From: Mytilus edulis
Lineage: Eukaryota
DNA length: 64,000 nucleotides
NCBI RefSeq assembly: GCF_963676685.1
Contig: NC_092349.1
Coordinates: forward strand, 76,034,473 to 76,098,472
Reading direction: 5' to 3'
In this document: one piece after another, positions 3,126 through 40,744 of the stretch
How positions within the stretch are numbered: the stretch's first letter is position 1
How the letters are laid out: every line of letters starts with the position of its first letter
Made by a program: the position numbers and the translations under genes
Notes under the pieces: generated by a model
Seen by the model: only the letters and a program-made list of their open reading frames with translations
What the model was told of the DNA's origin: nothing
The model's database searches: none

Positions 3126-3142
3126 ATTAGGAAAAATTGGTA

Positions 3143-5773: not shown

Positions 5774-7609
5774 TCATAATACGCAGCTATACGAAAATAT
5801 TTCCTTGCTAATAAGATCTCTGTCACCTAACATCTGAAAAGCTATTCCTAGTAATATTAAATTATATGCATGTACATCTATATACAGTTCTCTTGATTGA
5901 ATGTAATTACGAACTGTTTCTAATAACTTGTTTATACAATACTGACATGATTCAAAGTCATGGAGATGGCAACAACACAAAAACCGGAGGAAGTGTGCAA
6001 ATGGTTGAGAACTAATTGATTCCAATGAATTAAAGGCATGGGGACACTTTAGTTCAACTGGGATAACTGAATTTAATCTAAACTTGTGGAATAAGAAATA
6101 TGGAGATGGTATTTTCTTAACTAGTGACATTAGCTTCAATGTCTTTGTCTGCTTCAGTGTAATCTTTGACAAACATGATTCATCTGTATATTTTGACAAA
6201 GTGTAATTGATTATATCTGTTGATATTAAATGATTTTTGTGACCATAGAAGAAAGAAGCCAATTTCAGCCACCCCAATACAGCATCTGCCTGTACACCAA
6301 CCAACAACTGGCTTATGTCATGTTTGTAGAGCTTGTATTGCTGTGTATTGTTTGGTTTATTTACATGTAGTAGTGCAAAAGGTATTATTTGATATGCACT
6401 TGCAGTTGACAGTTTAAAGATACATCTGGATAATTCAGTTTTACAATGATACAGCAAAGTGTTCAATATGCGTAAAGTATTTGGAAAAGGTGACTGTACC
6501 TTCTCTATAATTATTTTCATTAATACAGTTATTTCACACATTGATCTTGTAGTTTCACATGGAAATCTTCTGAAATCATGTAAAGTCTGAGATGATGAGA
6601 AAATTTCAATTCCTTTTTGGTATGATTGTTTTAGGAAGTTGATTAATGTGTTCCATTGTTTATTGTTAAATCTTAGATAGAACAAGTTGTTATCAGGAAT
6701 GAAATAATGTAACAATGTTGAATACTCTATACAGTATAGTAACCTTTTTAAACAGGCAATAAAACAGGCAATGATATTGTAGGGTCTCCAGACTGATGTT
6801 TTATTTTCTTCTGATATCCAAAACATCCGGGTCTTCAGGAAGTATGAACACAATAAACCTTGTATGTCTTCCTCTCTGTTCACTATTTCTTTCATTAATA
6901 TCTTTATCAAAACATAGCATAGTAGCTGAGTATGACTGAAAGAATATATCAGTATCTTCTTTGCAACAGAAAATGATATTCGCCACTAAGAATTCTCATT
7001 TGTAGATCCCTTATTACCGATTGGAACAAATAAAGTATCGCATGAAGTTATTTTTAAAATAAGTTCAGATGAAGGCCATATTAAACGTGATCTTGAGATC
7101 AATGGTTGGGCTTGAGATACCTACTGATCACATTTAATACAGCTTGCAAAATCATAGTTATCATACTTGTCTGATATGCATGGACCATGAATACTCATAT
7201 ATGATGCTAATCCTTTTAATCCTTTGAACTTTTGTGATTTATAAAGCTCACTTGAAAGTAGGTGTTTTCCATTGTGTTGTTGTAGATTTTGTTTGATATG
7301 ATTTGGTAGACTATTAACAATCACATTGGAATATAATCGTAGTTGTGTAAAACATGGCTGTGCATCCTCAGTATCCATAACTAACATTGTCTTCCAATCC
7401 TGTATTAAAGCATCGTTATCTGATTCATATACTATATATTTAAGAACAATTCGCATTAAATCAAGATCACTACCTTTAAGATCCAATCCTTCTCCCTTAC
7501 TTCCACTGGTTATATAAGGAATGAATTTGCTGGTATTTTGAAAGTCTTCACATATATATTCTAATTGTCTTGCTCTTATAACTTTCTTTGATCCAATCCT
7601 CTGACACAA
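5774..7609 (-). pseudogene. cGLR paralog (copy A) body: NTase core ORF 7121-7609 and C-terminal 378-aa ORF 5774-6910, interrupted by in-frame TAG and a frameshift
   Basis: About 75% aa identity by eye to the intact cGLR over NTase (SGSKGEGLDLKGSDLDLM, LVMDTED) and helical domain. Where the intact gene reads CDQWVSQAQPW this copy reads CDQ*VSQAQPL (TGG to TAG near 7118-7120). Frame shifts between ORF 6801-6986 and ORF 5774-6910. N-terminus separated by a LINE. Confidence 0.7.
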
Positions 7610-9400
7610 CCATTGTTCAAAGACGTTCCGTTATTTACATCATTTAAAAATCTTTCAGAAGACGAAGTTAAGACCATCATAAATAAATTGCAATGTAAAT
7701 CATGCGAACTTGACATTTTGCCTACGAAAGTACTTAAATCGTTCCTTAGTGAATTGTTGCCTGTTATCACAAAGTTAGTTAACTTGTCTCTTAGTCAAGG
7801 CGTCTTCCCATTAAGATGGAAGCAAGCGGAAGTCAGGCTTCTGCTGAAAAAGGCTGATCTTGAACTAATTTACTCAAATTATAGACCAGTAAGCAACTTG
7901 TCTTTCCTGTCTAAATTAATTGAAAAATGTGCGCTATATAGACTGAATGAACACGTGAAAGATCATGATCTCCTTCCTACAAACCAATCTGCGTATCGTC
8001 AATTCCATTCGTGCGAATCGGCCCCTCTACGACTCGTTAATGACATACTCGATGGGATGGAGCATAAAGAAGTCACCGATATGATCGCCGTTGATTTAAG
8101 TGCAGCATTCGATACTGTAGATCATAGTATTTTGATAAAAGTACTCGACTATCAGTACGGTGTAAATGGAACCGCACTTAAATAGATCGATTCCTATTTG
8201 AGACCTCGAAGCTGTCGTGTAAATGTCAGGTCTACAACATCATCAGAGCGACAACTTGAGTGTAGCGTACCACAGGGAAGTTGCTTAGGTCCCTGGCTTT
8301 ATTTAGTCTACACCGGAACTCTATTCGACATTATTCCACCATCTATTACTGTGTACGGATTTGCCGACGACCATACTGCTAATAAACGTTTCGTGCCAAC
8401 ATTAACGAATGAGATGGATGCAATTCGTGACTTACAGGACTGCGCTGTTCATATAAACACCTGGATGAACAGTAACAAACTAAAAATGAACAATGCGAAA
8501 ACAGAGTTTATTCTCTTTGGCAGTCGACACCAACTCTCTAAATGTCAGACAAAAGAAATAATCATTTGTGGAGATGTTATAAAATCAAAAACATGTATAC
8601 GGTACTTAGGAGCTTTTCTGGATGAGACTCTAAACTTCAAAGACCATATTACTAAAAAATGTAAAACAGCAATGATGAACTACTACAAAATAAAGTGCAT
8701 AAGATCCTATCTATCGAAAGAAGCAACTGAAACTTTGGTCTTATCTTTGGTTATATCACATTTAGATTATTGCAATGTTATACTTTTTGGAATTTCACAA
8801 ACTGATTTATATAAATTGCAACGTATACAGAATATGTGTGCCAAACTTGTGTTAAACCGTTCTAAGTATGATAGTGCCAAGCAGGCATTGTTTGACTTAC
8901 ACTGGCTTCCGATCGAAGCCAGAATTACATTCAAAATCTTAACATATATGTACAACTGTCATGTAGGTAATGCGCCGTCATATTTGATCAATTTGTTAAA
9001 TCCTCAAGTGTCGAAACGTTCATTAAGGTCGTCAGAGTCATCTATTGGTTGTTATGCAGTCCCATATAACAAAAAGAAAACTTTTTCAGATAGAAGCTTT
9101 AGTACTGTTGGGCCAAAATTGTGGAATGAACTAGGTACAAATGTAAGAAACTCTGAATCTTTGGATACTTTTAAATGTCGGTTGAAAACATTGTATTTCC
9201 AAAATTATTTTGAACTTTTCTGACTTTTTTCTTGTGTATCACAGTGTATATTTTCAATTTTTGGTATAGTACATACATATTGTATTTTTGTATAGTATTT
9301 TTGTATTTTATATGTCATTTATGTACAACGCCGTTGAATACATATTGTATATGTAGAAATAGGCGTTTAATTAAGTTTTCATGTTTCATGTTTCATGTTT
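7610..9400 (+). mobile_element. 5'-truncated non-LTR retrotransposon (LINE) fragment, RT domain (ORFs 7613-8185 and 8198-9223, one internal TAG) plus 3' UTR ending in (TTTCATG)n
   Basis: RT motifs YRPVSNLSFLSKLIEKC, QSAYRQFHSCESA, VDLSAAFDTVDHSIL, SVPQGSCLGPWLY, YGFADDHT. Tail ttcatgtttcatgtttcatgtttca at 9376-9400. Flanked by duplicated CAA of the interrupted cGLR codon (short TSD). Confidence 0.85.
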
Positions 9401-9445
9401 CAAGTATTTATAAAAACGTAAGGATTCTGTTTTACTGTGAGACAT
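9401..9445 (-). other. Displaced first 15 codons (MSHSKTESLRFYKYL) of the cGLR pseudogene copy A, left on the far side of the LINE insertion, followed by the cGLR 5' flank
   Basis: Reverse complement of 9401-9445 reads atg tct cac agt aaa aca gaa tcc tta cgt ttt tat aaa tac ttg, matching intact start MSHSTTESLHFYKYL. Nucleotide homology to 33763-33807 continues into the upstream flank. Confidence 0.65.
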
Positions 9446-9464
9446 GGTATTTAACTTTGTAGGA

Positions 9465-10150
9465 ATTCTAAATAGAACAGTGATGTTGCATTACTGTCCA
9501 GATATTTTTTTCTCTTTTTCTTTGTGATGGTTTCTGATTGACTATCCTGTTTTATTGTCTAGATTGTCTTTAATCCTGGTGGTTTCTGGATAGTATTGTG
9601 AAATTGTCCAGATATTCTCTCTTGCCTTATAATGGTTTCTAGATGTTCGTGTCAAATTGGCCTATTCGTCCAATATTCTTTACTGTTTTCTATATGGTAC
9701 TGTATAATTGTTTAGTTCGTCTTTTATCCTTGCAATGGATTCTGTATGGTAATGTATAATTGTCTAGATATTCTAACTGTCCGTGTATTGGTTTATAGAA
9801 GTTCCTGTCAAATTGTCGAATATTTGATCTACTCTTCTTTTCTTTTACTTGTTTCTACATCAGGTACTGTATAATTGTCTAGTTTGTCTAATATCCTTGT
9901 AATGGGATCTGGGTGGTACTGTATAATTGCAAAGCTGTTCTCTCTAGCCTTGTAATGTTTTATCAATATTCTTGTCAAATTGTCCAATATTTTCTCTACC
10001 CTTTTTTTTTCTTTTCTTTTACTGGTTAATCTAAATGGTCATGTATAATGTTTGGTTTGTCTTTAACTCCTGAAGGGTTTCTGGTTTCTGATACTGTATG
10101 ATAGTCTAGACATTTGTTCATACTTGGAATGGTAAGTGTGGGTTTTCTTA
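9465..10150. repeat. Minisatellite (~60-90-bp degenerate units) in the 5' flank of the cGLR pseudogene (copy A); copy B at ~21743-22428
   Basis: Recurring blocks such as ggtactgtataattgtctag, ccttgcaatggattctg and attgtccagatattct. Homologous to the 5' flank of the intact cGLR at 33830-34210. Confidence 0.6.
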
Positions 10151-12039
10151 TGACGTTCCTTTAAAATAAACAAAGATAATCTGTTTTACATATTGTCAAA
10201 GATGGAAATTGTGTAGTCAAAGTTTGAACTGGAAATTTCCCATTTCACCTTTTCTAGTGAAGTCTTATTTCTTTTACTATTCTTTTTTATATATATTTCT
10301 GATGTAACTGACACATCTTGTTTTAACTATAAGATACATTTAAAGTCTATATTTCAATAATTTTTCCTAGTTGCATGTTTCATAAATTTCAGTGGCAGAT
10401 ACATAATTTCTAAAAAGAAAGCACTGACTGCCTAAGAGCATCACTCATGCTTCAGTTATTCCGTATTTAATTAACTACATTTCCCTCCTGCCCCCTATAA
10501 ATATGCCTCTGAAATTTGTATTTAATGTACTGCTTTTCATAGAATTATATTTTTAGAATCATTTGCAATGAGGATCCTTTTTTATAAGAAACTAAATTAG
10601 CACGCATTTCCCATACTTTCTTATTAAACAACTTAATGATATTTCCTCCTACAGTAGCTTGAACTAGGAAATATTTCTCTGTACTGAAGCAAGAGGATAT
10701 GATATGTTCAGTTTCATAACTTCAAGGTATTTTTATTCACTGTTCATTTTTAAATGTGAAATATTTATATTAAATGATATCGATAAGGAAATATTGTATG
10801 ATAAATGGAATGATAAATTATGACAGCTAGTATGAATAAAAATAATATTTCATATCAAAACTTGTAAGATTTAGCCTTTTCTTAGGTTTCAAAAATCAAA
10901 AAGTAAAAGTTTAGGCATATGGAAAGTACACGAGCTTTCTGAAGCACTCAATAGGTGCCCCTTTCTTAAAATTTAAATGTATATTTACAGCATCATACAG
11001 CTTCCCCTTTCTAAAATCAAAGTGGTGAACTTTCTAGAACATTGGATAGAACCCTTTTCTGTCACAAAGTAAAACTTGTATGGTGTTTCCAGTACCTGCT
11101 ACAACAACATTTATTTAAGGTTGGAAGTTAGGTCCGTTTAAAGAGAAACCTACTAGTCATTCAATATGCACTTGTAAAAGCATTTACACATTTGATTATT
11201 TGGTCTTTCCCCTTTATTCATGATCTATTGACTTTGAAACTTTTGCATAGTATACATGTTAAAAGTTGGTGGTTAGGTCAGTTTAAGGATAACTACTAAC
11301 TAATAAGTCACTGATACAAGGTTTGCAGTTCTCATTGGCAAATGTTATATCGCAAACAATATTTTGCCCCGTTCCTTCAGTCATGGTTCATAGACTTAAA
11401 AGTACAAGTATTTTGCATAATTACCATGTTTAAGTATTACCGTTTTAAATTTCAACATTTAAATTTCACTATCAAATTACACAATGACAACACATATCTC
11501 TGTGTCCGCAGTTTAATTCAAAACATGTATAAAATGATTGATCTTTATTTTCTATATCAGTAATAATGAGCGGAACGAACAAGTATCTTGTTCAAATAGG
11601 TTTAGCAGTACAATTCAAAATTCTCCTGAAATACTTTTTTTGACCATGTCTGCTTGTTACAATTTGTTAAGATTTGTAAAATTCAAATCATTTAGGCAAC
11701 TTTAATGCAGAAATGTGTAATCATAAAGCCTCTCTACTAGGTAACACCGTTTGCAAATGTTGTATTGGGCTCATGACGCCTGGTCCATGGAAATTCTGCA
11801 TTTCTCATTTAAAATTGAATGCTGCTTTTTGTACTTATTGTAGTGTATGAGCATGTCAAAGCATATTAAATCTAAAGCACAGATGTCCTTCGTAATTAAG
11901 ATTCATGGATTGTTAACCCTTTTACAACCCTGTTAAGTTTCAAAAGAAGCATTTATTTCTTATTATTGCAATGTTATGTACAAATCTGATATGCTATGTT
12001 ATTATAACAAAACAAACCATCTACATCATTTTGACTCTG

Positions 12040-12830
12040 TTGGAGAGAAGTCTTGTCTCATTGGTAACTTTTAATCTCTTGTGGAAAGTTGTCTCATTTG
12101 CATTCAAGCATTTCATACCATTTGCCACATCTACATCATTTGGTCTTAAGGGAGCTACCATTTGCTTTTTATCGAGGGGGGGCTAGGATGAAATTTTGAA
12201 AAAAGGCAGGACGTCGTAGCCCCCCCCCCCCCCCCCTTATAAGATCAAATGGTAGCTACCTAAGTGAAAAGTTGTCTCATATGCAATCATACACCTTACC
12301 ACATCTACATCATTTGGTCTCTGGTGGCAAGTTATCTTCATTTGGTGTCTGCTAGAAAGTTGATTGCATCACTGGTAATCCAACCACATCTAAATCATTT
12401 GGTCTTGAGTGAAGAGTTGTCTCACCGGCAATCAAACGACATCTACATTATTTGGTCTTGAGTGAAGAGTTGTCTCACCGGCAATCAAACCTCATCTACA
12501 TTCTTTGGTCTAGAGTGGAGAGTTGTCTCACCGGCAATCAAATGACTTGTACATTATTTGGTCTTGAGTGGAGAGTTGTCTCACCGGCAATCAAATGATA
12601 TCTACATTATATGGTCTTGAGTGGAGAGTTGTCTCACTGGCAATCAAACGACATCTACATCATTTGGTCTTTAGTGGAGAGTTGTCTCACTGGCAATCAA
12701 ACCACATCTACATTATTTTGTTTTGAGTGTAGAGTTGTCTCATTGGCAATCAAACCACATCTACATTATTTCGTCTATGGTGGTGAGTTATCTCATTGGC
12801 AAACATACATCATCAACATCATTTGGTATA
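12040..12830. repeat. Satellite array, ~57-bp unit (consensus roughly catctacattatttggtcttgagtggagagttgtctcaccggcaatcaaacga), about 12 units; duplicated at ~24318-25105
   Basis: Head-to-tail repeats visible directly. ORFs 12264, 12611 and 12723 are translations of the repeat. Confidence 0.85.
12151..12260. mobile_element. 110-bp palindromic insertion inside the satellite: 14-bp TIRs (ggagctaccatttg / caaatggtagctacc), G7 and C17 complementary homopolymers, flanked by TAAG direct repeats (12147-12150, 12261-12264). Copy B at 24430-24535 with C13
   Basis: Satellite unit reads continuously ...ttggtcttaag | insertion | taagtgaaaagttgtctc. Inverted termini and G/C arms seen in sequence. Confidence 0.5.
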
Positions 12831-12959
12831 CCGTTATGTAATATATGTGAAACAAATGCCAACATTTATATCAATTGTCATAACAACAAATTCCTTCCTA
12901 TTTTCAATGATTGTGACATCACTGACTAAGCTGTTCTTATATGAACGTAGCATGTACAA

Positions 12960-13650
12960 TAGGTGAAACATGTGAAGCAGGATCATCTAACCCTTATCTG
13001 TATAAAAGAGGGACGGAAGATATCAGAGGGACAGCCATACTCATTAATCGAAAATAAACTGACAACGCCATGGCTTAAAATGAAAAAGACAAACAGACAA
13101 ACAATAGTACAGAAGACACAACATAGAAAAACTAAAGAATAAGCAACACGAACCCCACCAAAAACTAGGGATGATCTCAGGTGCTCCGGAAGGGTATCCT
13201 GCTCCACACGTGGCACCCGTCGTGTTGCTCGTGTTATAACAAATCCGGTATATAGTCTAATTCGGTAGGTCACATTTATGGAAGGGAAGGGGATTGTAGT
13301 TACGACGTAAGGAACATATCCTATATCATCTGTAAAACGGTTATTCTCTAACGATCAACCAATTCGTGATGGCCTGATGATTGTATAAATCATCCATATT
13401 TTAATGAGCTTCAGGTAGGTCAGTCGTTTGTTTTCTACGTAGTTTTTTGTTAACATGTTCATGTTTTTACGCTTTGACATTGTTAGTTTTTCTTCTAGTT
13501 ATGATATTTTTAAAATGTCCTTTTGGTATATTTTACCTCTTTTTATACCAGAGCTGACGAATAGTTGCCTACATCTCCATTATTTGGACTTTGTGAATAT
13601 TAGCTTATTGACAATCATATCACGACTCCTATTTTTTATGTAAATAGTTG
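12960..13650 (-). mobile_element. SINE-like dispersed repeat containing ORF 12983-13273 (TRATRRVPRVEQDTLPEHLRSS...). Copy B at 25235-25925; related copy at ~1750-2240
   Basis: gatctcaggtgctccggaagggt (13181-13203) reappears as reverse complement ccggagcaccagagatc at 1796-1812. Similar heads ggctcctgacgttgg...gcggcgggattaaacacgtgtg at 45680-45760, 47400-47470 and 56620-56680. Confidence 0.5.
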
Positions 13651-16600
13651 GTTTTTTTTTTATAATAAACAGTATGTTGTTTCTTAATTCTTCTAGACAG
13701 TTTTATGCATTTTAATAAAATGGTGGAACTGGTTTTAGAATATTGCTATCTTAGCTGGTTTCCAGATGTCGGTAGTATATTTTGGCCGACACGGTGTATC
13801 TACTTTTCATTGCATGTGCTGTCTTTGGTTTTTCTTGTTCAAATTAGTGGAACTCCTGTTTGTAGCTAAACTATGCAGATTTTTACAGGACTAACAGTAA
13901 AACAATTTTAAGAATACTGAAACGTTACTCTATCAGGATATGAAATTTCAAGTTTGTGACAAGCAAAGATAAAAATCTGAGATACTTATTTTTTAAAGAA
14001 ACCCCTCAACACATTTTAGGCCCAATACCGTGAATTCATTAATATCCGTTAGATACTAATTTTCGTAGATTTTGTGGGTATGTGGGAACCATGAATTTAA
14101 ATGTTCAACGAATTACAAATTTCCTAGAGGAAGGTATGCAGACTTTGCCAAAAGCACGAAGTAAGATATACACGAATATGCAAGTTTTCCTCAATCCACG
14201 AAAATAAATGAATCCACAGGAGCAATTTGATTCAGAAACACGAATGAATAGTAATAAAAGATATTGACTGTTTTAATTATAAATTTTTGTCAGATATTGG
14301 GAATCCTTCTGTTTATCCATGTAGAACCATAAAAAAAATTGCGCCTACTATCCCCTACTTTTCTATTATAATTTTGCATTAGTTTAAAAAGGCAAATCTC
14401 AAAATATTAGAAAAATTCTTGTTATTTTTTAGTGTTTGAAAAAAGTACTAGCTAATGTTAAATGTTTGACTTTATATCTTTACACTATGAATGACAGACC
14501 TTCCATGTTGATTATTTTAGAGATATACTTGCATATAATTCCTTTGTATATCAAAATGTATATCAAATTGCCATCTATTGATTATTGTGGAAAATTTTAT
14601 TTATCAAATTGAAGTTTTTGATAAGAATAATGAAAGTGTTTTGTCAGTATCATATGTGAATCCTTTTTTGTTCAAGATCTGTATTGATATTAAAGTTGAT
14701 TCCCACACTTTTGTTAAATGCTCATATTCCAATTCTTGCATTATGTAATTGAGATTACAATTACAGTGTAAAGGACAGCTACCATAATTTTCAAACAATT
14801 ATACTGAAAGGTGTAAGTATTAATTGGATGTAACTCTACCCAAATACAGTTATATTGATATATCATGACAGCTGATTATTATATTGGTATTCAGGTCAAG
14901 AATGTGTGTATTTGATCTGTTACACATCTAACTAGTACTAAATGCACAAAATCTTGACATCAATAGTAGTAACATTCGTTTCATAATCATTTGATATAAG
15001 CTATTTTAAATTATTGTCTCTTTAAGTTACAGTTATGGGTAATTTGGTTGAAGCCATACACACAATTGCATAACTCTTACATGAGCGTTTTTTGCAAAGA
15101 AATATTTTTTTTATTCCCATTATATTGCTTTTTAAAAATAAGTAATTAAAAATTATCTCAACGTTAGGTATTTGTGCATGTTTATATGAATACAGGAAAT
15201 GTATTTTTCCTTAATGAATAATAAACATCAATTTGAATAAAAGATAGTTATTAATTTTTTTGTGTTGACAAATTGTTCTTGGAATTATTAAGCCAATTAT
15301 TATTGATGGTATATGAAAATATGGTACACATTTGATGATTTCTCTTAACACTCTTGTCAAATTGATTGATTTTCAAATGTTTCTTAAAAATTATGAAAAA
15401 AATCTTATAGTGTCTTCAGTTGAAATACCAAGATAATTGCATCAATAATGCAAAATTCTCCATCGTTTGGCAATAGAATAGAATTTGTGCAGTGAGATTA
15501 TGGAAATAAAATAACAAAGAAAAATTGAAAGTATGGTCAGAAAATAATTGCAGACTACTGAAATGGCTTAATCTTAACATCCATGATGCTTTAATTTTGT
15601 TGTTTGTATACTATCAATTTTATATAACAGTCTTTTAAAAAGCATGATATTTTGAAACAGAGTAGCAACATTTTTACTTGAGTTAATATGTCTGCTATCT
15701 ATATTTTGTACTATCATTAACTTCTCTGAAACACACTCGAGACTACTATATTACAGTAGTCTCAAAATAAATCTGCTTTTACTCACTTATTTAGTAGTTA
15801 AGTTATTAACTAACTACAGGCAAAGGGAAAATGCTATGAAGTAAAATGATTTATCGACTCTAGAATTATACAACAATGTTCATAATTATTTACTCATAAT
15901 TGTATAGTGTGTGTGCAGTTACATGTTTTATTGACCCTAACACTATTTAATAAGAATGTAGTTATTCATTGTAAAACAGAATAGATATGAAACAACAATT
16001 CAGGAAAGAGGAAGTATGAAAAGGTTACTTTGTTGGCCCTTCCAAACGACAAATCTAGATGTATTAAATATTAAGCCAATGAGATTTACCTCAACAATAC
16101 TTTTTTAAGATTTTCAGTTAATAATTTGAAAATGAAGAGATATATGTAGATAAGATGTATTTGACTAAGATGTTAATAGATGTAAAATATGTTTCTGGGT
16201 AGGACCTTGACTCATAAATATTGTTTTTCCAAAAAGGAGTGTAAAATAGTGAAAATATCCTTTGAGCATTACAAATTCCTATCTTATAGTGCATAATCAT
16301 TATCAATATAATTAACAAATGGCTCTCATCATACTTCCTCCTTTTTAGATGTGATTAAAGTTTTAAAAAAATCAACAGTTTATTGAATGATAAATTCATA
16401 AAATATTCCATTCATTTATTTTTAACTTCTATCCAATGAATGTATTAAATTGATCAATTCGGAAGTTAAATTAAACAAATATAAGCTACAAGTTGAGTTT
16501 TAAGCAGCATTATCAACTTTACCAATACCAATTTTGGTGCTATAGATACATATATTTATTGCCTCATCCGTACTAGTAATGCTTATGACAAAAATAGTTC

Positions 16601-18299: not shown

Positions 18300-18410
18300 T
18301 TAGTCATTCAAATGTGACGTCATTTTTGTGCTGTTTCAAAATTTCAAATATGACGTAATTTTTGTGCCTTTTCACCACTTCGTATGTGACGTCACTTGTT
18401 TCACCTATTG
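18300..18410. promoter_or_regulatory. Three ~36-bp direct repeats each carrying a CRE-like palindrome (TGACGTCA, TGACGTAA, TGACGTCA); duplicate at 30578-30688
   Basis: aaatgtgacgtcatttttgtgctgttt / aaatatgacgtaatttttgtgcctttt / cgtatgtgacgtcacttgtttcacc. TGACGTCA is the canonical CREB/ATF site, so the regulatory reading is inference only. Confidence 0.35.
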
Positions 18411-18533
18411 CGTTGAGGCCTTGACTAAGTCGGGTGTGTCTATTTTTTGTGTTGGTCTTTGTAATGTATCAGGGTTTTGTTTTCTGTAATTAGTTAAAAC
18501 TTCAGTTTAATAATGTATATCTTTTATATTCAT

Positions 18534-19887: not shown

Positions 19888-21678
19888 CCATTGTTCAAAG
19901 ACGTTCCGTTATTTACATCATTTAAAAATCTTTCAGAAGACGAAGTTAAGACCATCATAAATAAATTGCAATGTAAATCATGCGAACTTGACATTTTGCC
20001 TACGAAAGTACTTAAATCGTTCCTTAGTGAATTGTTGCCTGTTATCACAAAGTTAGTTAACTTGTCTCTTAGTCAAGGCGTCTTCCCATTAAGATGGAAG
20101 CAAGCGGTAGTCAGGCTTCTGCTGAAAAAGGCTGATCTTGAACTAATTTACTCAAATTATAGACCAGTAAGCAACTTGTCTTTCCTGTCTAAATTAATTG
20201 AAAAATGTGCGCTATATAGACTGAATGAACACGTGAAAGATCATGATCTCCTTCCTACAAACCAATCTGCGTATCGTCAATTCCATTCGTGCGAATCGGC
20301 CCCTCTACGACTCGTTAATGACATACTCGATGGGATGGAGCATAAAGAAGTCACCGATATGATCGCCGTTGATTTAAGTGCAGCATTCGATACTGTAGAT
20401 CATAGTATTTTGATAAAAGTACTCGAATATCAGTACGGTGTAAATGGAACCGCACTTAAATAGATCGATTCCTATTTGAGACCTCGAAGCTGTCGTGTAA
20501 ATGTCAGGTCTACAACATCATCAGAGCGACAACTTGAGTATAGCGTACCACAGGGAAGTTGCTTAGGTCCCTGGCTTTATTTAGTCTACACCGGAACTCT
20601 ATTCGACATTATTCCACCATCTATTACTGTGTACGGATTTGCCGACGACCATACTGCTAATAAACGTTTCGTGCCAACATTAACGAATGAGATGGATGCA
20701 ATTCGTGACTTACAGGACTGCGCTGTTCATATAAACACCTGGATGAACAGTAACAAACTAAAAATGAACAATGCGAAAACAGAGTTTATTCTCTTTGGCA
20801 GTCGACACCAACTCTCTAAATGTCATACAAAAGAAATAATCATTTGTGGAGATGTTATAAAATCAAAAACATGTATACGGTACTTAGGAGCTTTTCTGGA
20901 TGAGACTCTAAACTTCAAAGACCATATTACTAAAAAATGTAAAACAGCAATGATGAACTACTACAAAATAAAGTGCATAAGATCCTATCTATCGAAAGAA
21001 GCAACTGAAACTTTGGTCTTATCTTTGGTTATATCACATTTAGATTATTGCAATGTTATACTTTTTGGAATTTCACAAACTGATTTATATAAATTGCAAC
21101 GTATACAGAATATGTGTGCCAAACTTGTGTTAAACCGTTCTAAGTATGATAGTGCCAAGCAGGCATTGTTTGACTTACACTGGCTTCCGATCGAAGCCAG
21201 AATTACATTCAAAATCTTAACATATATGTACAACTGTCATGTAGGTAATGCGCCGTCATATTTGATCAATTTGTTAAATCCTCAAGTGTCGAAACGTTCA
21301 TTAAGGTCGTCAGAGTCATCTATTGGTTGTTATGCAGTCCCATATAACAAAAAGAAAACTTTTTCAGATAGAAGCTTTAGTACTGTTGGGTCAAAATTGT
21401 GGAATGAACTAGGTACAAATGTAAGAAACTCTGAATCTTTGGATACTTTTAAATGTCGGTTGAAAACATTGTATTTCCAAAATTATTTTGAACTTTTCTG
21501 ACTTTTTTCTTGTGTATCACAGTGTATATTTTCAATTTTTGGTATAGTACATACATATTGTATTTTTGTATAGTATTTTTGTATTTTATATGTCATTTAT
21601 GTACAACGCCGTTGAATACATATTGTATATGTAGAAATAGGCGTTTAATTAAGTTTTCATGTTTCATGTTTCATGTTT
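19888..21678 (+). mobile_element. LINE RT fragment, copy B of the element at 7610-9400
   Basis: ORFs 19891-20463 and 20476-21501 differ from copy A by about 5 aa (AEV/AVV, LDY/LEY, ECS/EYS, KCQ/KCH, GPK/GSK). Same TAG interruption and (TTTCATG)n tail. Confidence 0.85.
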
Positions 21679-21723
21679 CAAGTATTTATAAAAACGTAAG
21701 GATTCTGTTTTACTGTGAGACAT
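21679..21723 (-). other. Displaced first 15 codons of cGLR pseudogene, copy B
   Basis: Identical to 9401-9445 at offset +12278; cat (ATG on minus) at 21721-21723. Confidence 0.6.
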
Positions 21724-24700
21724 GGTATTTAACTTTGTAGGAATTCTAAATAGAACAGTGATGTTGCATTACTGTCCAGATATTTTTTTCTCTTTTTCTT
21801 TGTGATGGTTTCTGATTGACTATCCTGTTTTATTGTCTAGATTGTCTTTAATCCTGGTGGTTTCTGGATAGTATTGTGAAATTGTCTAGATATTCTCTCT
21901 TGCCTTATAATGGTTTCTAGATGTTCGTGTCAAATTGGCCTATTCGTCCAATATTCTTTACTGTTTTCTATATGGTACTGTATAATTGTCTAGTTCGTCT
22001 TTTATCCTTGCAATGGATTCTGTATGGTAATGTATAATTGTCTAGATATTCTAACTGTCCGTGTATTGGTTTATAGAAGTTCCTGTCAAATTGTCGAATA
22101 TTTGATCTACTCTTCTTTTCTTTTACTTGTTTCTACATCAGGTACTGTATAATTGTCTAGTTTGTCTAATATCCTTGTAATGGGATCTGGGTGGTACTGT
22201 ATAATTGCAAAGCTGTTCTCTCTAGCCTTGTAATGTTTTATCAATATTCTTGTCAAATTGTCCAATATTTTCTCTACCCTTTTTTTTTTCTTTTCTTTTA
22301 CTGGTTAATCTAAATGGTCATGTATAATGTTTGGTTTGTCTTTAACTCCTGAAGGGTTTCTGGTTTCTGATACTGTATGATAGTCTAGACATTTGTTCAT
22401 ACTTGGAATGGTAAGTGTGGGTTTTCTTATGACATTCCTTTAAAATAAACAAAGATAATCTGTTTTACATATTGTCAAAGATGGAAATTGTGTAGTCAAA
22501 GTTTGAACTGGAAATTTCCCATTTCACCTTTTCTAGTGAAGTCTTATTTCTTTTACTATTCTTTTTTTATATATATTTCTGATGTAACTGACACATCTTG
22601 TTTTAACTATAAGATACATTTAAAGTCTATATTTCAATAATTTTTCCTAGTTGCATGTTTCATAAATTTCAGTGGCAGATACATAATTTCTAAAAAGAAA
22701 GCACTTACTGCCTAAGAGCATCACTCATGCTTCAGTTATTCCGTATTTAATTAACTACATTTCCCTCCTGCCCCTATAAATATGCCTCTGAAATTTGTAT
22801 TTAATGTACTGCTTTTCATAGAATTATATTTTTAGAATCCTTTGCAATGAGGATCCTTTTTTATAAGAAACTAAATTAGCACGCATTTCCCAAACTTTCT
22901 TATTAAACAACTTAATGATATTTCCTCCTACAGTAGCTTGAACTAGGAAATATTTCTCTGTACTGAAGCAAGAGGATATGATATGTTCAGTTTCATAACT
23001 TCAAGGTATTTTTATTCACTGTTCATTTTTAAATGTGAAATATTTATATTAAATGATATCGATAAGGAAATATTGTATGATAAATGGAATGATAAATTAT
23101 GACAGCTAGTATGAATAAAAATAATATTTCATATCAAAACTTGTAAGATTTAGCCTTTTCTTAGGTTTCAAAAATCAAAAAGTAAAAGTTTAGGCATATG
23201 GAAAGTACACGAGCTTTCTGAAGCACTCAATAGGTGCCCCTTTCTTAAAATTTAAATGTATATTTACAGCATCATACAGCTTCCCCTTTCTAAAATCAAA
23301 GTGGTGAACTTTCTAGAACATTGGATAGAACCCTTTTCTGTCACAAAGTAAGACTTGTATGGTGTTTCCAGTACCTGCTACAACAACATTTATTTAAGGT
23401 TGGAAGTTAGGTCCGTTTAAAGAGAAACCTACTAGTCATTCAATATGCACTTGTAAAAGCATTTACACATTTGATTATTTGGTCTTTCCCCTTTATTCAT
23501 GATCTATTGACTTTGAAACTTTTGCATAGTATACATGTTAAAAGTTGGTGGTTAGGTCAGTTTAAGGATAACTACTAACTAATAAGTCACTGATACAAGG
23601 TTTGCAGTTCTCATTGGCAAATGTTATATCGCAAACAATATTTTGCCCCGTTCCTTCAGTCATGGTTCATAGACTTAAAAGTACAAGTATTTTGCATAAT
23701 TACCATGTTTAAGTATTACCGTTTTAAATTTCAACATCTAAATTTTACTATCAAATTACACAATGACAACACATATCTCTGTGTCCGCAGTTTAGTTCAA
23801 AACATGTATAAAATGATTGATCTTTATTTTCTATATCAGTAATAATGAGCGGAACGAACAAGTATCTTGTTCAAATAGGTTTAGCAGTACAATTCAAAAT
23901 TCTCCTGAAATACTTTTTTTGACCAAGTCTGCTTGTTACAATTTGTTAAGATTTGTAAAATTCAAATCATTTAGGCAACTTTAATGCAGAAATGTGTAAT
24001 CATAAAGCCTCTCTACTAGGTAACACCGTTTGCAAATGTTGTATTGGGCTCATGACGCCTGGTCCATGGAAATTCTGCATTTCTCATTTAAAATTGAATG
24101 CTGCTTTTTGTACTTATTGTAGTGTATGAGCATGTCAAAGCATATTAAATCTAAAGCACAGATGTCCTTCGTAATTAAGATTCATGGATTGTTAACCCTT
24201 TTACAACCCTGTTAAGTTTCAAAAGAAGCATTTATTTCTTATTATTGCAATGTTATGTACAAATCTGATATGCTATGTTATTATAACAAAACAAACCATC
24301 TACATCATTTTGACTCTGTTGGAGAGAAGTCTTGTCTCATTGGTAACTTTTAATCTCTTGTGGAAAGTTATCTCATATGCATTCAAGCATTTCATACCAT
24401 TTGCCACATCTACATCATTTGGTCTTAAGGGAGCTACCATTTGCTTTTTATCGAGGGGGGGCTAGGATGAAATTTTGAAAAAAGGCAGGACGTCGTAGCC
24501 CCCCCCCCCCCTTATAAGATCAAATGGTAGCTACCTAAGTGAAAAGTTGTCTCATATGCAATCATACACCTTACCACATCTACATCATTTGGTCTCTGGT
24601 GGCAAGTTATCTTCATTTGGTGTCTGCTAGAAAGTTGATTGCATCACTGGTAATCCAACCACATCTAAATCATTTGGTCTTGAGTGAAGAGTTGTCTCAC

Positions 24701-27700
24701 CGGCAATCAAATGACATCTACATTATTTGGTCTTGAGTGAAGAGTTGTCTCACCGGCAATCAAACCTCATCTACATTCTTTGGTCTAGAGTGGAGAGTTG
24801 TCTCACCGGCAATCAAATGACTTGTACATTATTTGGTCTTGAGTGGAGAGTTGTCTCACCGGCAATCAAATGATATCTACATTATATGGTCTTGAGTGGA
24901 GAGTTGTCTCACTGGCAATCAAACGACATCTACATCATTTGGTCTTTAGTGGAGAGTTGTCTCACTGGCAATCAAACCACATCTACATTATTTTGTTTTG
25001 AGTGTAGAGTTGTCTCATTGGCAATCAAACCACATCTACATTATTTCGTCTATGGTGGTGAGTTATCTCATTGGCAAACATACATCATCAACATCATTTG
25101 GTATACCGTTATGTAATATATGTGAAACAAATGCCAACATTTATATCAATTGTCATAACAACAAATTCCTTCCTATTTTCAATGATTGTGACATCACTGA
25201 CTAAGCTGTTCTTATATGAACGTAGCATGTACAATAGGTGAAACATGTGAAGCAGGATCATCTAACCCTAATCTGTATAAAAGAGGGACGGAAGATATCA
25301 GAGGGACAGCCATACTCATTAATCGAAAATAAACTGACAACGCCATGGCTTAAAATGAAAAAGACAAACAGACAAACAATAGTACAGAAGACACAACATA
25401 GAAAAACTAAAGAATAAGCAACACGAACCCCACCAAAAACTAGGGATGATCTCAGGTGCTCCGGAAGGGTATCCTGCTCCACACGTGGCACCCGTCGTGT
25501 TGCTCGTGTTATAACAAATCCGGTATATAGTCTAATTCGGTAGGTCACATTTATGGAAGGGAAGGGGATTGTAGTTACGACGTAAGGAACATATCCTATA
25601 TCATCTGTAAAACGGTTATTCTCTAACGGTCAACCAATTCGTGATGGCCTGATGATTGTATAAATCATCCATATTTTAATGAGCTTCAGGTAGGTCAGTC
25701 GTTTGTTTTCTACGTAGTTTTTTGCTAACATGTTCATGTTTTTACGCTTTGACATTGTTAGTTTTTCTTCTAGTTATGATATTTTTAAAATGTCCTTTTG
25801 GTATATTTTACCTCTTTTTATACCAGAGCTGACGAATAGTTGCCTACATCTCCATCATTTGGACTTTGTGAATATTAGCTTATTGACAATCATATCACAA
25901 CTCCTATTTTTTTATGTAAATAGTTGGGTTTTTTTTTATAATAAACAGTATGTTGTTTCTTAATTCTTCTAGACAGTTTTATGCATTTTAATAAAATGGT
26001 GGAACTGGTTTTAGAATATTGCTATCTTAGCTGGTTTCCAGATGTCGGTAGTATATTTTGGCCGACACGGTGTATCTACTTTTCATTGCATGTGCTGTCT
26101 TTGGTTTTTCTTGTTCAAATTAGTGGAACTCCTGTTTGTAGCTAAACTATGCAGATTTTTACAGGACTAACAGTAAAACAATTTTAAGAATACTGAAACG
26201 TTACTCTATCAGGATATGAAATTTCAAGTTTGTGACAAGCAAAGATAAAAATCTGAGATACTTATTTTTTAAAGAAACCCCTCAACACATTTTAGGCCCA
26301 ATACCGTGAATTCATTAATATCCGTTAGATACTAATTTTCGTAGATTTTGTGGGTATGTGGGAACCATGAATTTAAATGTTCAACGAATTACAAATTTCC
26401 TAGAGGAAGGTATGCAGACTTTGCCAAAAGCACGAAGTAAGATATACACGAATATGCAAGTTTTCCTCAATCCACGAAAATAAATGAATCCACAGTAGCA
26501 ATTTGATTCAGAAACACGAATGAATAGTAATAAAAGATATTGACTGTTTTAATTATAAATTTTTGTCAGATATTGGGAATCCTTCTGTTTATCCATGTAG
26601 AACCATAAAAAAAATTGCGCCTACTATCCCCTACTTTTCTATTATAATTTTGCATTAGTTTAAAAAGGCAAATCTCAAAATATTAGAAAAATTCTTGTTA
26701 TTTTTTAGTGTTTGAAAAAAGTACTAGCTAATGTTAAATGTTTGACTTTATATCTTTACACTATGAATGACAGACCTTCCATGTTGATTATTTTAGAGAT
26801 ATACTTGCATATAATTCCTTTGTATATCAAAATGTATATCAAAGTGCCATCTATTGATTATTGTGGAAAATTTTATTTATCAAATTGAAGTTTTTGATAA
26901 GAATAATGAAAGTGTTTTGTCAGTATCATATGTGAATCCTTTTTTGTTCAAGATCTGTATTGATATTAAAGTTGATTCCCACACTTTTGTTAAATGCTCA
27001 TATTCCAATTCTTGCATTATGTAATTGAGATTACAATTACAGTGTAAAGGACAGCTACCATAATTTTCAAACAATTATACTGAAAGGTGTAAGTATTAAT
27101 TGGATGTAACTCTACCCAAATACAGTTATATTGATATATCATGACAGCTGATTATTATATTGGTATTCAGGTCAAGAATGTGTGTATTTGATCTGTTACA
27201 CATCTAACTAGTACTAAATGCACAAAATCTTGACATCAATAGTAGTAATATTCGTTTCATAATCATTTGATATAAGCTATTTTAAATTATTGTCTCTTTA
27301 AGTTACAGTTATGGGTAATTTGGTTGAAGCCATACACACAATTGCATAACTCTTACATGAGCGTTTTTTGCAAAGAAATATTTTTTTTATTCCCATTATA
27401 TTGCTTTTTAAAAATAAGTAATTAAAAATTATCTCAACGTTAGGTATTTGTGCATGTTTATATGAATACAGGAAATGTATTTTTCCTTAATGAATAATAA
27501 ACATCAATTTGAATAAAAGATAGTTATTAATTTTTTTGTGTTGACAAATTGTTCTTGGAATTATTAAGCCAATTATTATTGATGGTATATGAAAATATGG
27601 TACACATTTGATGATTTCTCTTAACACTCTTGTCAAATTGATTGATTTTCAAATGTTTCTTAAAAATTATGAAAAAATCTTATAGTGTCTTCAGTTGAAA

Positions 27701-30700
27701 TACCAAAATAATTGCATCAATAATGCAAAATTCTCCATCGTTTGGCAATAGAATAGAATTTGTGCAGTGAGATTATGGAAATAAAATAACAAAGAAAAAT
27801 TGAAAGTATGGTCAGAAAATAATTGCAGACTACTGAAATGGCTTAATCTTAACATCCATGATGCTTTAATTTTGTTGTTTGTATACTATCAATTTTATAT
27901 AACAGTCTTTTAAAAAGCATGATATTTTGAAACAGAGTAGCAACATTTTTACTTGAGTTAATATGTCTGCTATCTATATTTTGTACTATCATTAACTTCT
28001 CTGAAACACACTCGAGACTACTATATTACAGTAGTCTCAAAATAAATCTGCTTTTACTCACTTATTTAGTAGTTAAGTTATTAACTAACTACAGGCAAAG
28101 GGAAAATGCTATGAAGTAAAATGATTTATCGACTCTAGAATTATACAACAATGTTCATAATTATTTACTCATAATTGTATAGTGTGTGTGCAGTTACATG
28201 TTTTATTGACCCTAACACTATTTAATAAGAATGTAGTTATTCATTGTAAAACAGAATAGATATGAAACAACAATTCAGGAAAGAGGAAGTATGAAAAGGT
28301 TACTTTGTTGGCCCTTCCAAACGACAAATCTAGATGTATTAAATATTAAGCCAATGAGATTTACCTCAACAATACTTTTTTAAGATTTTCAGTTAATAAT
28401 TTGAAAATGAAGAGATATATGTAGATAAGATGTATTTGACTAAGATGTTAATAGATGTAAAATATGTTTCTGGGTAGGACCTTGACTCATAAATATTGTT
28501 TTTCCAAAAAGGAGTGTAAAATAGTGAAAATATCCTTTCAGCATTACAAATTCCTATCTTATAGTGCATAATCATTATCAATATAATTAACAAATGGCTC
28601 TCATCATACTTCCTCCTTTTTAGATGTGATTAAAGTTTTAAAAAAATCAACAGTTTATTGAATGATAAATTCATAAAATATTCCATTCATTTATTTTTAA
28701 CTTCTATCCAATGAATGTATTAAATTGATCAATTCGGAAGTTAAATTAAACAAATATAAGCTACAAGTTGAGTTTTAAGCAGCATTATCAACTTTACCAA
28801 TACCAATTTTGGTGCTATAGATACATATATTTATTGCCTCATCCGTACTAGTAATGCTTATGACAAAAATAGTTCAAAATTCAATACTTAACATGCTTAA
28901 TGGATAAATTCATAATCCTCGTAGCAAAATTACTATCTAAGGCTAAGGTTATTCATTATATTAATATTGCAGTTTTAGTGATTACAATGTAATTTAATAG
29001 ACTCATTCAAGGCTAGAATTAACAGAAATTAATAGGTTTTGTGTGATATGATAGCCTATTTTAATGTCTGCTTAATAACGTTGTTTTAACCGGACAGAAT
29101 TTTAAAGTCAAATGAAACTTCAAATGTAAAACAAAAAGTTGTATGTGTTTTACATACATGTACTTGAATAGTTTAACTATAAAATAATGTACAAGAACGT
29201 TAATGTGAAGGAGAATCCTTTATATCATCAAAATCTTCATATTGTTCATTTAATATCTATATATTGTAGAAAAAAATAAGAACTCAAACATTTAACTTCA
29301 TAATGTTTGGTCTACAATTACAAAAGTTTCCCATTAGTTCTTCATGTTATATTTATTTTTTGAAGTGTTGAGTTCCTGATAGAGTACGTATAAATTGTGT
29401 AACGGCCTTCTAATCAAAACAAAAAAAACATATATCCATGTGCTTTGAATGTTTGTTTCTTTATACAATGTGACTTTACCTATTTGAATATTAAAGACAA
29501 CAAATGAAATGATCATCACTTAATAGTAATAAAGAGACCTAATAAGAAACCATTTTGGCCAGAAATTATGTAATTAAAAGTCAGAGCTCGTAAATATCAT
29601 ATATTATCATACATCAAGGTAGAAAAATATAAATTTGACAAAAATGAATATGGAGATTTTTTTTCTGCAAATATATAAATTACAAATGCAAAATAACGGC
29701 ACACTGCTTTTAAATTATTGTTTTCCTGTACACTAATTTACCGATGTGTTCCCGTATGCAGTGAACTTATCAACTATGAAAGATCTCGTTTGAGGTTCGG
29801 AAACTGCACAGCGCAAGTGCGAAGGAAACCCTTGACGAAGGAACGTAAACAGACGTGCAGTGGAAATTCAATAGTAATACCTGATTTTAAAGAACAAATT
29901 AAATACGCAAAATCATTTAACAACTTTACAGGAAAAGTTTAATTAACTTTCGGAATAAAAATAATATATAAATGAAATATCATGGTTCTAAATTGTACTT
30001 AATGTGTACGTGCTCCACATGCTCTCTGCGTTGATTGTTTATCAATGTCGTTATCTGGTAAACTTTGGAAACATACTCGAAAGTTAATAAGCTTAAGACC
30101 AACAACCACTGAAATAAATATTGTTTGTCAATAATACGTTATAAATTAGTAATAAAGGTAAAACTTTGCATATATGACTTAGCTAACTAATTCGCATTAC
30201 TATAAGACGTGTTACGGTACTTATCTATCCCAAATTCATGTATTCAGTTTGATGTTATATTTGTAATTCATAATATCGGATCTTGTCAAATGTGTTGACG
30301 TTTTACTATCATATTCATGTGTTATGGTAAGGAAAATTAATCACCGCCTTCATTTATTAGATTTGATTTTGTTTAACGTAATCTGTACGATGTTTTACGT
30401 TTGAAGTTAGATTCAAAACAAACCGGACATAGCTATATAATATAGTTAATTGCTACTTCTGTTTTCTATTAATAAGTATTGCAATGTGCATTGTTATTAA
30501 ATGTAATATCAGTATTTAGTTCAAAATATAATCTTAAATCAATTCTAATTCTATCTTACTTTTGAGATATAGTTTTAGTCATTCAAATGTGACGTCATTT
30601 TTGTGCTGTTTCAAAATTTCAAATATGACGTAATTTTTGTGCCTTTTCACCACTTCGTATGTGACGTCACTTGTTTCACCTATTGCGTTGAGGCCTTGAC

Positions 30701-31893
30701 TAAGTCGGGTGTGTCTATTTTTTGTGTTGGTCTTTGTAATGTATCAGGGTTTTGTTTTCTGTAATTAGTTAAAACTTCAGTTTAATAATGTATATCTTTT
30801 ATATTCATTTGATAAAATTTACTGTTTGCAATAGCATAAATTGTTCTAAATAATAAGGATGTTCTTATCCCAAGCAGAAAACCCTATCTGTATTTGGCAC
30901 AGCCTTTTTGAACTTATGATCCTCAGTGCTGTACAATTTTGTACTTTTTTTTACTTTCGAACTTTTATATCTGGGCGTCACTGGTGAGTCTTGTGTGGAC
31001 GAGTCGCGTTTCTGACGTATTGAATTTTAAACCTGATGCCTTTTGTTAGCTATTATTCATGTGTTTCTAATATGTCTAATATGTTCTATTTATTTGTATT
31101 GTAATCCTGTAATATTATGTTGTCATTTTAATGTTATATTTAACATTGGCATTAAAGTGCGAGGTTTGGCATGCCACAAAACCAGGTTCAACCCACCATT
31201 TCTTTCTTTAAAAATGTCCTGTACCAAATCAGGAATATGGCCATTGTTATATTAAAGTTCGTTTCTGTGTGTTACATTTTAACGTTGTGTTAGCGTTGTG
31301 TCGTTTATTTTCTCTTATATTTGAGTGTGAATTCACATTACTATAAGACGTGTCACGGTACTTTTCTATCCCAAATTCATGTATTTGGTTTTGATGTTAT
31401 ATTTGTTATTCTCGTCGGATTTTGTCTAATGCTTAGTCCGTTTCTGTGTGTGTTACATTTTAATGTTGTGTCGTTGTTCTCCTCTTATATTTAATGCGTT
31501 TCCCTCAGTTTTAGTTTGTTATCCCGATTTTGTATTTTGCCTATAGATTTAAGAGTTTTGAACAGCGGTATACTACTGTTGCCTTTATTTAACTACATAT
31601 GCATGCATTGGTTCAAAAATTTCGATAACAATAATATTACAAAAAAACCTTTGTGATTTAAAGTTATTAGTACAATAAATATTACTAAAAAGCAAAGCAA
31701 GCTTGTATGACAATAGCAGTGTGATCTTATTGGCTATTGTTATCAAAAGAATGAAAATATTGAGTTACAAACTGCAGCTGTGCTATTAGCGCAGTTAATT
31801 TATATTTCGAGACAATGTATGGTTATTTTATGCATACTAAATTCTATAAACCATACTGTTAAAGGGCACAATCGTTTGGTCATAACTCAGGCC

Positions 31894-33807: not shown

Positions 33808-33829
33808 AGTCTTTAACTTTTTCCAGATA

Positions 33830-40678: not shown

Positions 40679-40744
<66 letters not shown>

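Follow-up and report, generated by a model that had tools for sequence, protein, structure and literature searches.

We report that a 64,000-nucleotide stretch of the Mytilus edulis genome (contig NC_092349.1, assembly GCF_963676685.1; herein the window, to which all coordinates refer) probably contains a real and very young tandem segmental duplication, which on the evidence of its sequence would have arisen by non-homologous end joining within a cluster of cGLR (cGAS-like receptor) genes. Two copies of a single unit lie head-to-tail, copy A at 6256..18533 (12,278 bp) and copy B at 18534..30808 (12,275 bp). Self-BLAST returns them as a single alignment of 12,281 columns at 99.666% identity, with 32 mismatches and 6 gap openings, and global alignment resolves the 38 differing events into 32 substitutions and 6 indels, the latter falling without exception (6/6) in homopolymer runs. 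A repeat finder gave an A-to-B offset of 12,275-12,280, in agreement with self-BLAST. A match of 12 kb at 99.7% is far beyond chance, and two adjacent direct copies of one unit at 99.67% identity are the arrangement that a tandem segmental duplication would leave. An earlier sequence-only reading had proposed a near-identical tandem duplication (>99.5% identity) comprising a pseudogene fragment, a LINE, the cGLR 5' flank, a satellite and spacer; the identity, obtained here by both self-BLAST and global alignment, and every item of this content hold, and the start of the unit moves by one base, from 6255 to 6256.

The order of the locus before the duplication was a dead cGLR gene with a LINE in codon ~14, the 5' flank of that gene, a 53-bp satellite, ~5.6 kb of AT-rich spacer, a repeated element of ~860 bp and an intact cGLR paralog. 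The intact paralog (31894..33807, minus strand) is a single-exon, cGLR-like gene of 637 aa that lies outside the duplication, with its stop codon 1,086 bp from the right breakpoint, and its product matches an annotated M. edulis protein at 100% identity. It carries both domains expected of the family, Mab-21 (the NTase; PF03281, 1.9e-07) and Mab-21_C (the C-terminal HhH/H2TH-like domain; PF20266, 1.8e-14), and its best solved relatives are cGLR1 (8gjy, 7e-12) and cGAS. A GSKGEGLDLKGSDLD motif is visible in the intact gene and in the pseudogene and is a candidate for the catalytic G[S/G]...[D/E]x[D/E] signature of cyclic-nucleotide synthesis. The intact gene has no close counterpart (>70% aa) in other Mytilus annotations, and exact-protein look-ups for the same locus in other assemblies or individuals (with the intact cGLR, P0001 and P0004) gave 0 matches. 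Three M. trossulus loci (L001-L003) were considered as orthologs of the unit and rejected, all three genes being paralogs at ~78-81%; they still served for the right-boundary test and as outgroups.

The pseudogene in copy A (5774..7609, minus strand) forms a single reading frame that aligns to amino acids 11-613 of the intact paralog (69% aa, 80% nt) with 2 in-frame stops, and pseudogene ORFs match PF20266 (2.9e-14). The LINE interrupts its 5' end, and the left duplication breakpoint (6255/6256) lies inside the gene, where it had been placed before. In copy B the pseudogene (18534..19887, minus strand) has both of these stops and the LINE and is short of ~160 codons at its 3' end, a loss already recognized in the sequence-only reading, with the 482 nt at 5774-6255 lying outside the unit; its open frame reads on for 32 nt across the junction into copy A, to a stop at 18502. 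Relative to the intact paralog, the disabling lesions are thus two in-frame stops and the LINE, identical in both copies. Because these lesions are common to A and B, pseudogenization preceded the duplication, and the earlier label of pseudogene is apt. When the pseudogene ORF crossing the left breakpoint was used to look for homologs, no annotated protein of the collection matched it above 70% identity, which suggests that the pseudogene and the junction ORF are both unrecorded.

The LINE is a 5'-truncated fragment of a non-LTR retrotransposon (7610..9400, plus strand, in copy A; 19888..21678, plus strand, in copy B) inserted in pseudogene codon ~14, with one in-frame stop and an RVT_1 domain spread across two consecutive ORFs, with only ~78 aa ahead of the RT domain and no endonuclease. 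Its 3' tail is a simple repeat, (TTTCATG)n, of 3.7 repeats (9377-9402), and against the intact paralog the insertion is clean, with a 3-bp target-site duplication (CAA), so that RT domain, 5' truncation, repeat tail and target-site duplication are all in place. The two LINE copies are separated by exactly 5 nucleotide differences, all of them non-synonymous, in keeping with the ~5 amino acid changes previously counted in the LINE ORFs. The insertion separates the first ~13 codons and the promoter of the pseudogene from the rest; these codons remain with the 5' flank (9401..10203, minus strand; 21679-22482 in copy B), a segment that includes a 156-167-bp tandem repeat and has its homologue at 33763-34261, ahead of the 5' end of the intact gene.

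The remainder of the unit is noncoding. A poly-C tract (12220..12236, plus strand) has 17 C in copy A and 13 C in copy B (24499-24511), the same counts as in the sequence-only reading. The satellite (12369..12827, or 12258-12928 with its degenerate edges) has 8.7 copies at 87% matches, and its copy number is the same in copy B (24644-25102); its period is 53 bp, and the 57 bp claimed earlier is wrong. The prior structural account, a young head-to-tail duplication truncating a cGLR pseudogene, is supported wherever it can be tested. Within the AT-rich spacer (12929..18533; 25204-30808 in copy B) there is no ORF of at least 100 aa and no Pfam (longest ORF), Rfam or tRNA match, and we reject the idea that it hides genes or RNAs. 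The spacer contains pieces of dispersed repeats (13004-13372 and 17914-18017) and a 36-bp tandem repeat (18307-18394).

The junction between the copies is the sole novel join in the structure. It lies at 18533/18534 (18525..18544 with its immediate flanks), exactly where the sequence-only reading had put it, and global alignment shows TATATTCAT abutting AAGCCAATTTC with 0 bp of microhomology and no filler bases, that is, a blunt join. Both outer boundaries, by comparison, can be followed without interruption in related sequence. On the left, 5705-7609 aligns to the 80% paralog at 31874-33765 in one self-BLAST alignment that runs straight through the breakpoint; on the right, 30808/30809 is unbroken in the M. 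trossulus copy of the ~860-bp repeated element (30736..31593 here; L003 12595-13439, 84.8%), whose left end lies 72 bp from the breakpoint, and alignment shows copy A departing from the M. trossulus element exactly at 18533/18534. Since both outer boundaries keep the ancestral order and copy A diverges at the breakpoint, only the A/B join is new, as expected of a tandem segmental duplication.

The breakpoints also constrain how the join could have formed. Sensitive BLAST detects no homology between the parental breakpoint regions (around 6256 and 30808), and there is 0 bp of identity flanking the junction; lacking shared homology, the breakpoints exclude NAHR and offer no repeat that could mislead an overlap assembler. 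Breakage induced by a hairpin or palindrome was also considered and set aside, the inverted repeats near either breakpoint being weak, imperfect (71-85% complementary) and in no way distinctive. Nor is the whole unit a mobile element: it ends inside a gene at one side and inside another element at the other, without terminal repeats or a target-site duplication. An exact search of a metagenome collection with a 32-mer across the junction gave 0 matches, as did a control 35-mer from the unit start, such that this absence is uninformative.

We hypothesize that one break occurred inside the dead cGLR (6255/6256) and another 72 bp into the repeated element (30808/30809). A direct, blunt ligation with neither microhomology nor filler would then have connected one chromatid (or homologue), at its end, to the start of its partner, leaving two successive units with a single new junction. 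Blunt joins are a signature of classical NHEJ (PMC7407515). It would be equally possible for replication restart to have led to a ligation of this type. The differences between the copies, 32 substitutions (0.26%) and 6 changes of homopolymer length, would have arisen later, or would partly be pre-existing alleles if two homologues were joined.

The amount of divergence between the copies is consistent with a young event. Substitution divergence is 0.26%, with a transition to transversion ratio of 19:13 and three differences that are CpG transitions, a spectrum that appears biological rather than error-like. The distribution of these differences is less readily accounted for. The 38 differing sites are spread over ~9.3 kb, with counts per 2 kb along the unit of 4, 7, 13, 9, 4, 1, and 0 (a central peak), and the sequence-only reading, which had described few differences between the copies, needs correcting in that a 2.9-kb tract across the junction (16265..19206, with partners 28540-30808 and 6256-6928) has none, where ~9 are expected (P about 0.0014 in circular and 0.016 in linear form, both post hoc). 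The nearest differing sites on either side of it are 16264 (G/C) and 19207 (A/G). This uneven spread is not predicted by simple divergence after duplication and counts against our best reading.

A variant of that reading is that the duplication is real and arose by exchange between homologous chromosomes, or was later subject to gene conversion, such that most of the 38 differences are allelic or mosaic and do not act as a clock. The irregular spacing, the identical 2.9-kb tract and the central peak look more like patchy allele genealogies or a tract of conversion than like even decay, and when differences were polarized with outgroup paralogs, all three sites that could be resolved were derived in copy A; however, three sites are too few to discriminate between models (two-sided P = 0.25), and the evidence for nonuniformity comes from a post hoc test that reaches only moderate significance when the unit is treated as linear (P = 0.016). 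Nothing speaks specifically against this variant, and its inter-homologue and gene conversion forms predict an identical present-day structure. We regard it as possible, though tentative. If an inter-homologue origin were true, the event may be only generations old, and this qualifies the earlier description of the duplication as very recent: the divergence of 0.26% does make it young, with the caveat that, under inter-homologue exchange, the 32 substitutions could be allelic and the event younger still.

Another alternative is that the duplication is an artefact of assembly, in which a single-copy locus is represented by the two haplotypes of a heterozygous mussel laid end to end, through contig-end overlap or faulty gap filling. 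Mussel genomes are highly heterozygous and partly hemizygous, and one M. edulis assembly retained 11.3% duplicated BUSCOs after haplotig purging. Moreover, a 12.3-kb unit falls within the range of long-read lengths and is thus also of the size of a contig-end overlap, the differences are interior with identical unit margins, as if two haplotigs overlapped, and a join of read ends would likewise yield a blunt, arbitrary junction. Published hallmarks of false duplication are half depth, a gap between the pair, discordant pairs and 1-copy k-mers (PMC9516828). The gap is the sole one that can be tested here, and the two copies adjoin without one, the 64-kb window containing 0 N. The source is probably the HiFi-based Darwin Tree of Life assembly, whose pipeline marks joins with N. 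Overlap assemblers, furthermore, require shared sequence for adjacency, and none exists between unit end and unit start.

The level of divergence is low for two haplotypes. Published mean heterozygosity in Mytilus is 1.73 +/- 0.24%, a rate at which 12.3 kb should contain ~212 allelic SNPs, and 32 are observed; divergence is thus about 6-7 times (~6.6) lower than the mean, although local heterozygosity varies and can sit far under the genome mean, so that 0.26% alone is compatible with two alleles. In 12 kb of noncoding, repeat-rich DNA there are also 0 non-homopolymer indels, and satellite copy number is equal. Taken as a whole, the evidence internal to the sequence leans clearly toward a real event over uncollapsed haplotypes, and we consider the artefact unlikely. 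Least probable is a true array of at least three units collapsed to two in the assembly: near-identical tandem units collapse easily, and further units would be difficult to position given the difference-free tract at the junction, but no sequence evidence supports it, and with 38 diagnostic sites over ~9.3 kb accurate long reads should normally be able to tell the units apart.

The preferred reading, a real duplication by end joining, finds its closest parallel in end-joining tandem duplications and CNVs, with which the mussel unit shares head-to-tail copies, one novel junction, unrelated breakpoints, no flanking repeats, kilobase scale and a blunt join (PMC7407515). Many of these have 1-5 bp of microhomology, whereas the mussel unit has none and no filler, and its mechanism is read from the junction only. 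False heterotype duplications resemble it in their adjacent near-identical copies, heterozygous genome and long-read-sized block; in contrast to those, the mussel copies are without a gap, diverge well below the mean allelic level and show no structural differences (Ko et al. 2022, PMC9516828). The unit also recalls the presence/absence variation and hemizygous blocks of Mytilus, as a young and probably polymorphic variant in an expanded innate-immunity family; however, the duplicated block has no functional gene and is extra DNA with no dispensable gene (Gerdol et al. 2020, PMC7653742). Finally, as in the cGLR expansions of bivalves, the setting is a tandem cluster of single-exon Mab-21/cGLR-like genes, although what is duplicated here is a dead copy, which illustrates the death side of the process and raw duplication and adds no new receptor (Li et al. 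2023, bioRxiv 10.1101/2023.02.22.529553).

In M. edulis and in M. trossulus alike, several cGLR paralogs with ~80% nucleotide identity share a chromosome, the window itself holds an older block of 80% paralogy, and in M. trossulus a ~40-kb inverted duplication surrounds two cGLR genes. The older block and the M. trossulus inverted duplication indicate that multi-kilobase segmental duplication is recurrent in the cGLR cluster. We speculate, with considerable reserve, that the mussel unit is a hemizygous CNV seen just after its birth in a cGLR array and that the 2.9-kb tract is the footprint of ongoing exchange or gene conversion between the new copies. Taken with the older block and the M. trossulus inverted duplication, this would mean that blunt end-joining duplications of ~10-20 kb happen often, with concerted evolution and decay in their wake, and that both the mussel cGLR arrays and the presence/absence variation characteristic of immune genes in mussels are their product.

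The duplication copied no functional gene: the two premature stops and the truncated LINE are present in A and B alike, and copy B is also missing ~160 codons. Eukaryotic genomes commonly contain young tandem duplications, and with no functional gene gained this is an ordinary event of limited importance. For annotators it is a flag, as copy B, left unmarked, would add one more cGLR fragment to the count, and depth should be checked before copy-number claims are made. The duplication is probably still polymorphic, as a copy-number or hemizygous variant, and would be selectively neutral, an example of the birth-and-death turnover that builds the large cGLR arrays of bivalves. It offers a clean, base-resolved example of cGLR turnover and structural polymorphism in mussels, in which stops and a LINE came first and a blunt duplication of ~12 kb followed.

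The self-comparison of the window is dominated by a single alignment, in which positions 6256-18533 (copy A) match 18534-30808 (copy B) over 12,281 columns at 99.666% identity, with 32 mismatches and 6 gap openings, and a repeat finder recovers the same register (offsets 12,275-12,280). In a global alignment the copies differ by 38 events, of which 32 are substitutions and 6 are indels; each indel alters the length of a homopolymer run, among them a poly-C tract of 17 versus 13 bases. The copies adjoin directly, with ...TATATTCAT running into AAGCCAATTTC... at 18533/18534 and nothing in between. The bases outside the left boundary differ from those before the junction, as do those after the junction from those outside the right boundary, so the A/B join shows neither microhomology (0 bp) nor filler. 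The sequence-only reading of this block was otherwise correct, save that the duplication starts one base later (6256) and that the satellite within it has a period of 53 bp, not 57 bp.

That reading had allowed for either a real event or an assembly artefact. Judged from the sequence itself, the 12.3-kb tandem duplication is probably real, and we regard an artefact as unlikely, even though the unit is about as long as one long read, heterozygosity can be locally low and retained duplicated haplotypes are known in mussel assemblies. Published signs of a false duplication are read depth at half the normal level, a gap separating the two copies, discordant read pairs and heterozygous k-mers present in single copy (PMC9516828); the gap is absent, as the window contains no N. 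An overlap-based assembler would, moreover, need shared sequence to place the copies side by side, and the end and start of the unit share none. The published mean heterozygosity of Mytilus is 1.73 +/- 0.24%, accompanied by abundant large indels and hemizygous blocks, whereas substitution divergence between A and B is 0.26% (32 differences against ~212 allelic SNPs expected over 12.3 kb), there are no indels outside homopolymers and the satellite copy number is equal in both copies. The substitution spectrum also looks biological, with 19 transitions (3 CpG transitions) and 13 transversions.

The differences between the copies are unevenly spread (4, 7, 13, 9, 4, 1 and 0 per 2 kb of the unit, with up to 13 in the centre), a pattern not predicted by uniform decay after duplication. 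Both the last 2,269 bp and the first 673 bp of the unit lack differences, so that a 2.9-kb difference-free tract spans the junction (16265-19206; partners 28540-30808 and 6256-6928); in simulation such a tract has P = 0.0014 (circular) or 0.016 (linear), both values being post hoc. Gene conversion between the copies is one possible cause. Another possibility is an origin of the duplication in an exchange involving two homologues; the differences would then be inherited alleles with a patchy genealogy. Chance combined with regional variation in mutation rate is also possible. Polarisation with outgroup paralogs places all three polarisable differences as derived in copy A, too few to decide between these causes.

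The left breakpoint (6255/6256) lies within sequence that is unbroken in a paralog of 80% identity, 5705-7609 aligning to 31874-33765 in one piece. The right breakpoint (30808/30809) falls 72 bp inside a repeated element of ~860 bp that is unbroken in its M. trossulus copy (84.8%; 12595-13439 of L003, a locus with a cGAS-like receptor (cGLR) paralog), and in a three-way alignment M. trossulus tracks copy B on into the flanking sequence to the right, and copy A diverges from both exactly at the breakpoint. Because the left and right sequences are continuous in the paralog and in M. trossulus, both outer boundaries represent the ancestral order, which leaves the A/B junction as the single new join; the breakpoint structure is that of a textbook simple tandem duplication. 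Blunt joins that lack microhomology are characteristic of classical end joining, whereas many tandem duplications carry short microhomology (PMC7407515). The join seen here would point to classical end joining, a pathway whose precise form we infer only; candidate routes are a pair of breaks, either on sister chromatids or on homologues, and a replication restart that ends in ligation. No notable hairpin was found at either breakpoint. Comparison within the window found the two parental breakpoint regions to be unrelated in sequence, which excludes NAHR, and the unit is not a transposon, since its ends are not element termini.

Beside the unit lies an intact cGLR ORF (31894-33807, minus strand; 637 aa) with Mab-21 and Mab-21_C domains, which matches an annotated Mytilus edulis protein with 100% identity; the closest solved structures are cGLR1 and cGAS. 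Its residues ~340-637 carry no Pfam domain, and more distant paralogs among the matches bear TPR-type domains. The unit begins inside a paralogous pseudogene (5774-7609, minus strand), which holds one reading frame throughout and contains two in-frame stop codons; its alignment with the intact protein covers residues 11-613 of the latter, and identity is 69% for amino acids and 80% for nucleotides. The pseudogene is interrupted at codon ~14 by a 1.79-kb LINE fragment (7610-9400, plus strand), a 5'-truncated non-LTR retrotransposon, given that it encodes an RVT_1 reverse transcriptase broken by one internal stop, lacks an endonuclease part and has a (TTTCATG)n tail; the insertion is clean relative to the intact paralog, with a 3-bp CAA repeat. 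Immediately past the LINE tail, 9401-9458 matches 33763-33820, where the intact gene has its leader and first codons, at 91%, and weaker similarity continues to ~10203 and 34261, including a 156-167-bp tandem repeat. This repeat is common to the 5' flanks of the pseudogene (9547-10062) and the intact gene (33973-34261), and thus belongs to the older (80% identity) duplication block; it may be part of the promoter region. The poly-C tract, the 53-bp satellite and an AT-rich spacer of ~5.6 kb follow in that order, the spacer yielding no sizeable ORF, Pfam hit, Rfam family or tRNA. Copy B starts at the breakpoint, without the last ~160 codons of the pseudogene, and shares both stops and the LINE with copy A; the gene was therefore already dead when it was duplicated.

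The window is repeat-rich along its whole length. The satellite lies next to a ~370-bp module (13004-13372), the two together falling within 12258-13372 and 24533-25647. The satellite recurs at 52515-53037 (70-76%) and upstream of a M. trossulus cGLR gene (2096-2800 of locus L002; ~72%), and the module is 82-85% conserved downstream of two mirrored M. trossulus cGLR genes; poly-C, satellite and module may form one composite repetitive element. A 242-bp sequence (44969-45210) recurs at 37993-38054 and 39040-39227 (99-100% identical), split by ~985 bp, and minus-strand ORFs between these repeats (42094-44713) include an RVT_1 reverse transcriptase (6.3e-25), so that 37993-45210 resembles a young LTR-type retroelement in which one of the terminal repeats has taken up an insertion. 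Further features are a 466-aa reverse-transcriptase ORF (61625-63025, minus strand; RVT_1 3.7e-21), a 183-bp inverted repeat pair (57378-57560 and 59332-59514; 95.6%, ~1.8 kb apart), dispersed repeats pairing 1-356 with 1171-1529 (91%; within 1-1529) and 3833-4314 with 48942-49428 (88%; within 2784-4314 and 48024-49428), and tandem arrays whose units repeat every ~157 bp and ~152 bp (48292-48897; 58163-58779).

Large cGLR expansions are a known trait of bivalves. Except for one M. trossulus pair at 90%, the retrieved paralogs share ~78-81% pairwise nucleotide identity, whether the comparison is made within a species or across M. edulis and M. trossulus. Two cGLR genes of M. trossulus (P0022 and P0005, one per arm) are mirrored in a ~40-kb inverted duplication (CM071709.1:10175599-10216513, merging loci L002 and L001), whose arms are at least 19 kb long and 88-97% identical (468-19674 versus 40915-19852 of the merged stretch, centre ~19,760), making multi-kb segmental duplication a recurring feature of the cGLR cluster. 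The mirrored gene bodies are 87.9% identical versus 93-97% for the surrounding arms, a hint of diversifying selection or of conversion by other paralogs. The M. trossulus loci are paralogous only and were rejected as orthologs of the unit. Look-ups for the duplicated locus in other assemblies found nothing, and exact searches of metagenome contigs returned 0 matches for the junction sequence and likewise 0 for a control sequence. In the annotations of M. galloprovincialis, M. trossulus, M. californianus and M. coruscus, no relative of the intact gene exceeds 69% amino-acid identity, though the species are close; this fits rapid birth-and-death or presence/absence variation, and marks the gene as possibly dispensable (subject to presence/absence variation) or as a possible member of a family with very fast turnover.

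No functional gene lies within the duplicated block, and the intact cGLR is unaffected: 1,086 bp separate its stop codon from the breakpoint, and its promoter sits at the opposite end of the gene. The best reading is of a neutral, recent and probably polymorphic event, a fresh case of a well-known kind of variant, and its main use is as a caution for annotation and as a clean, base-resolved example of cGLR array turnover.
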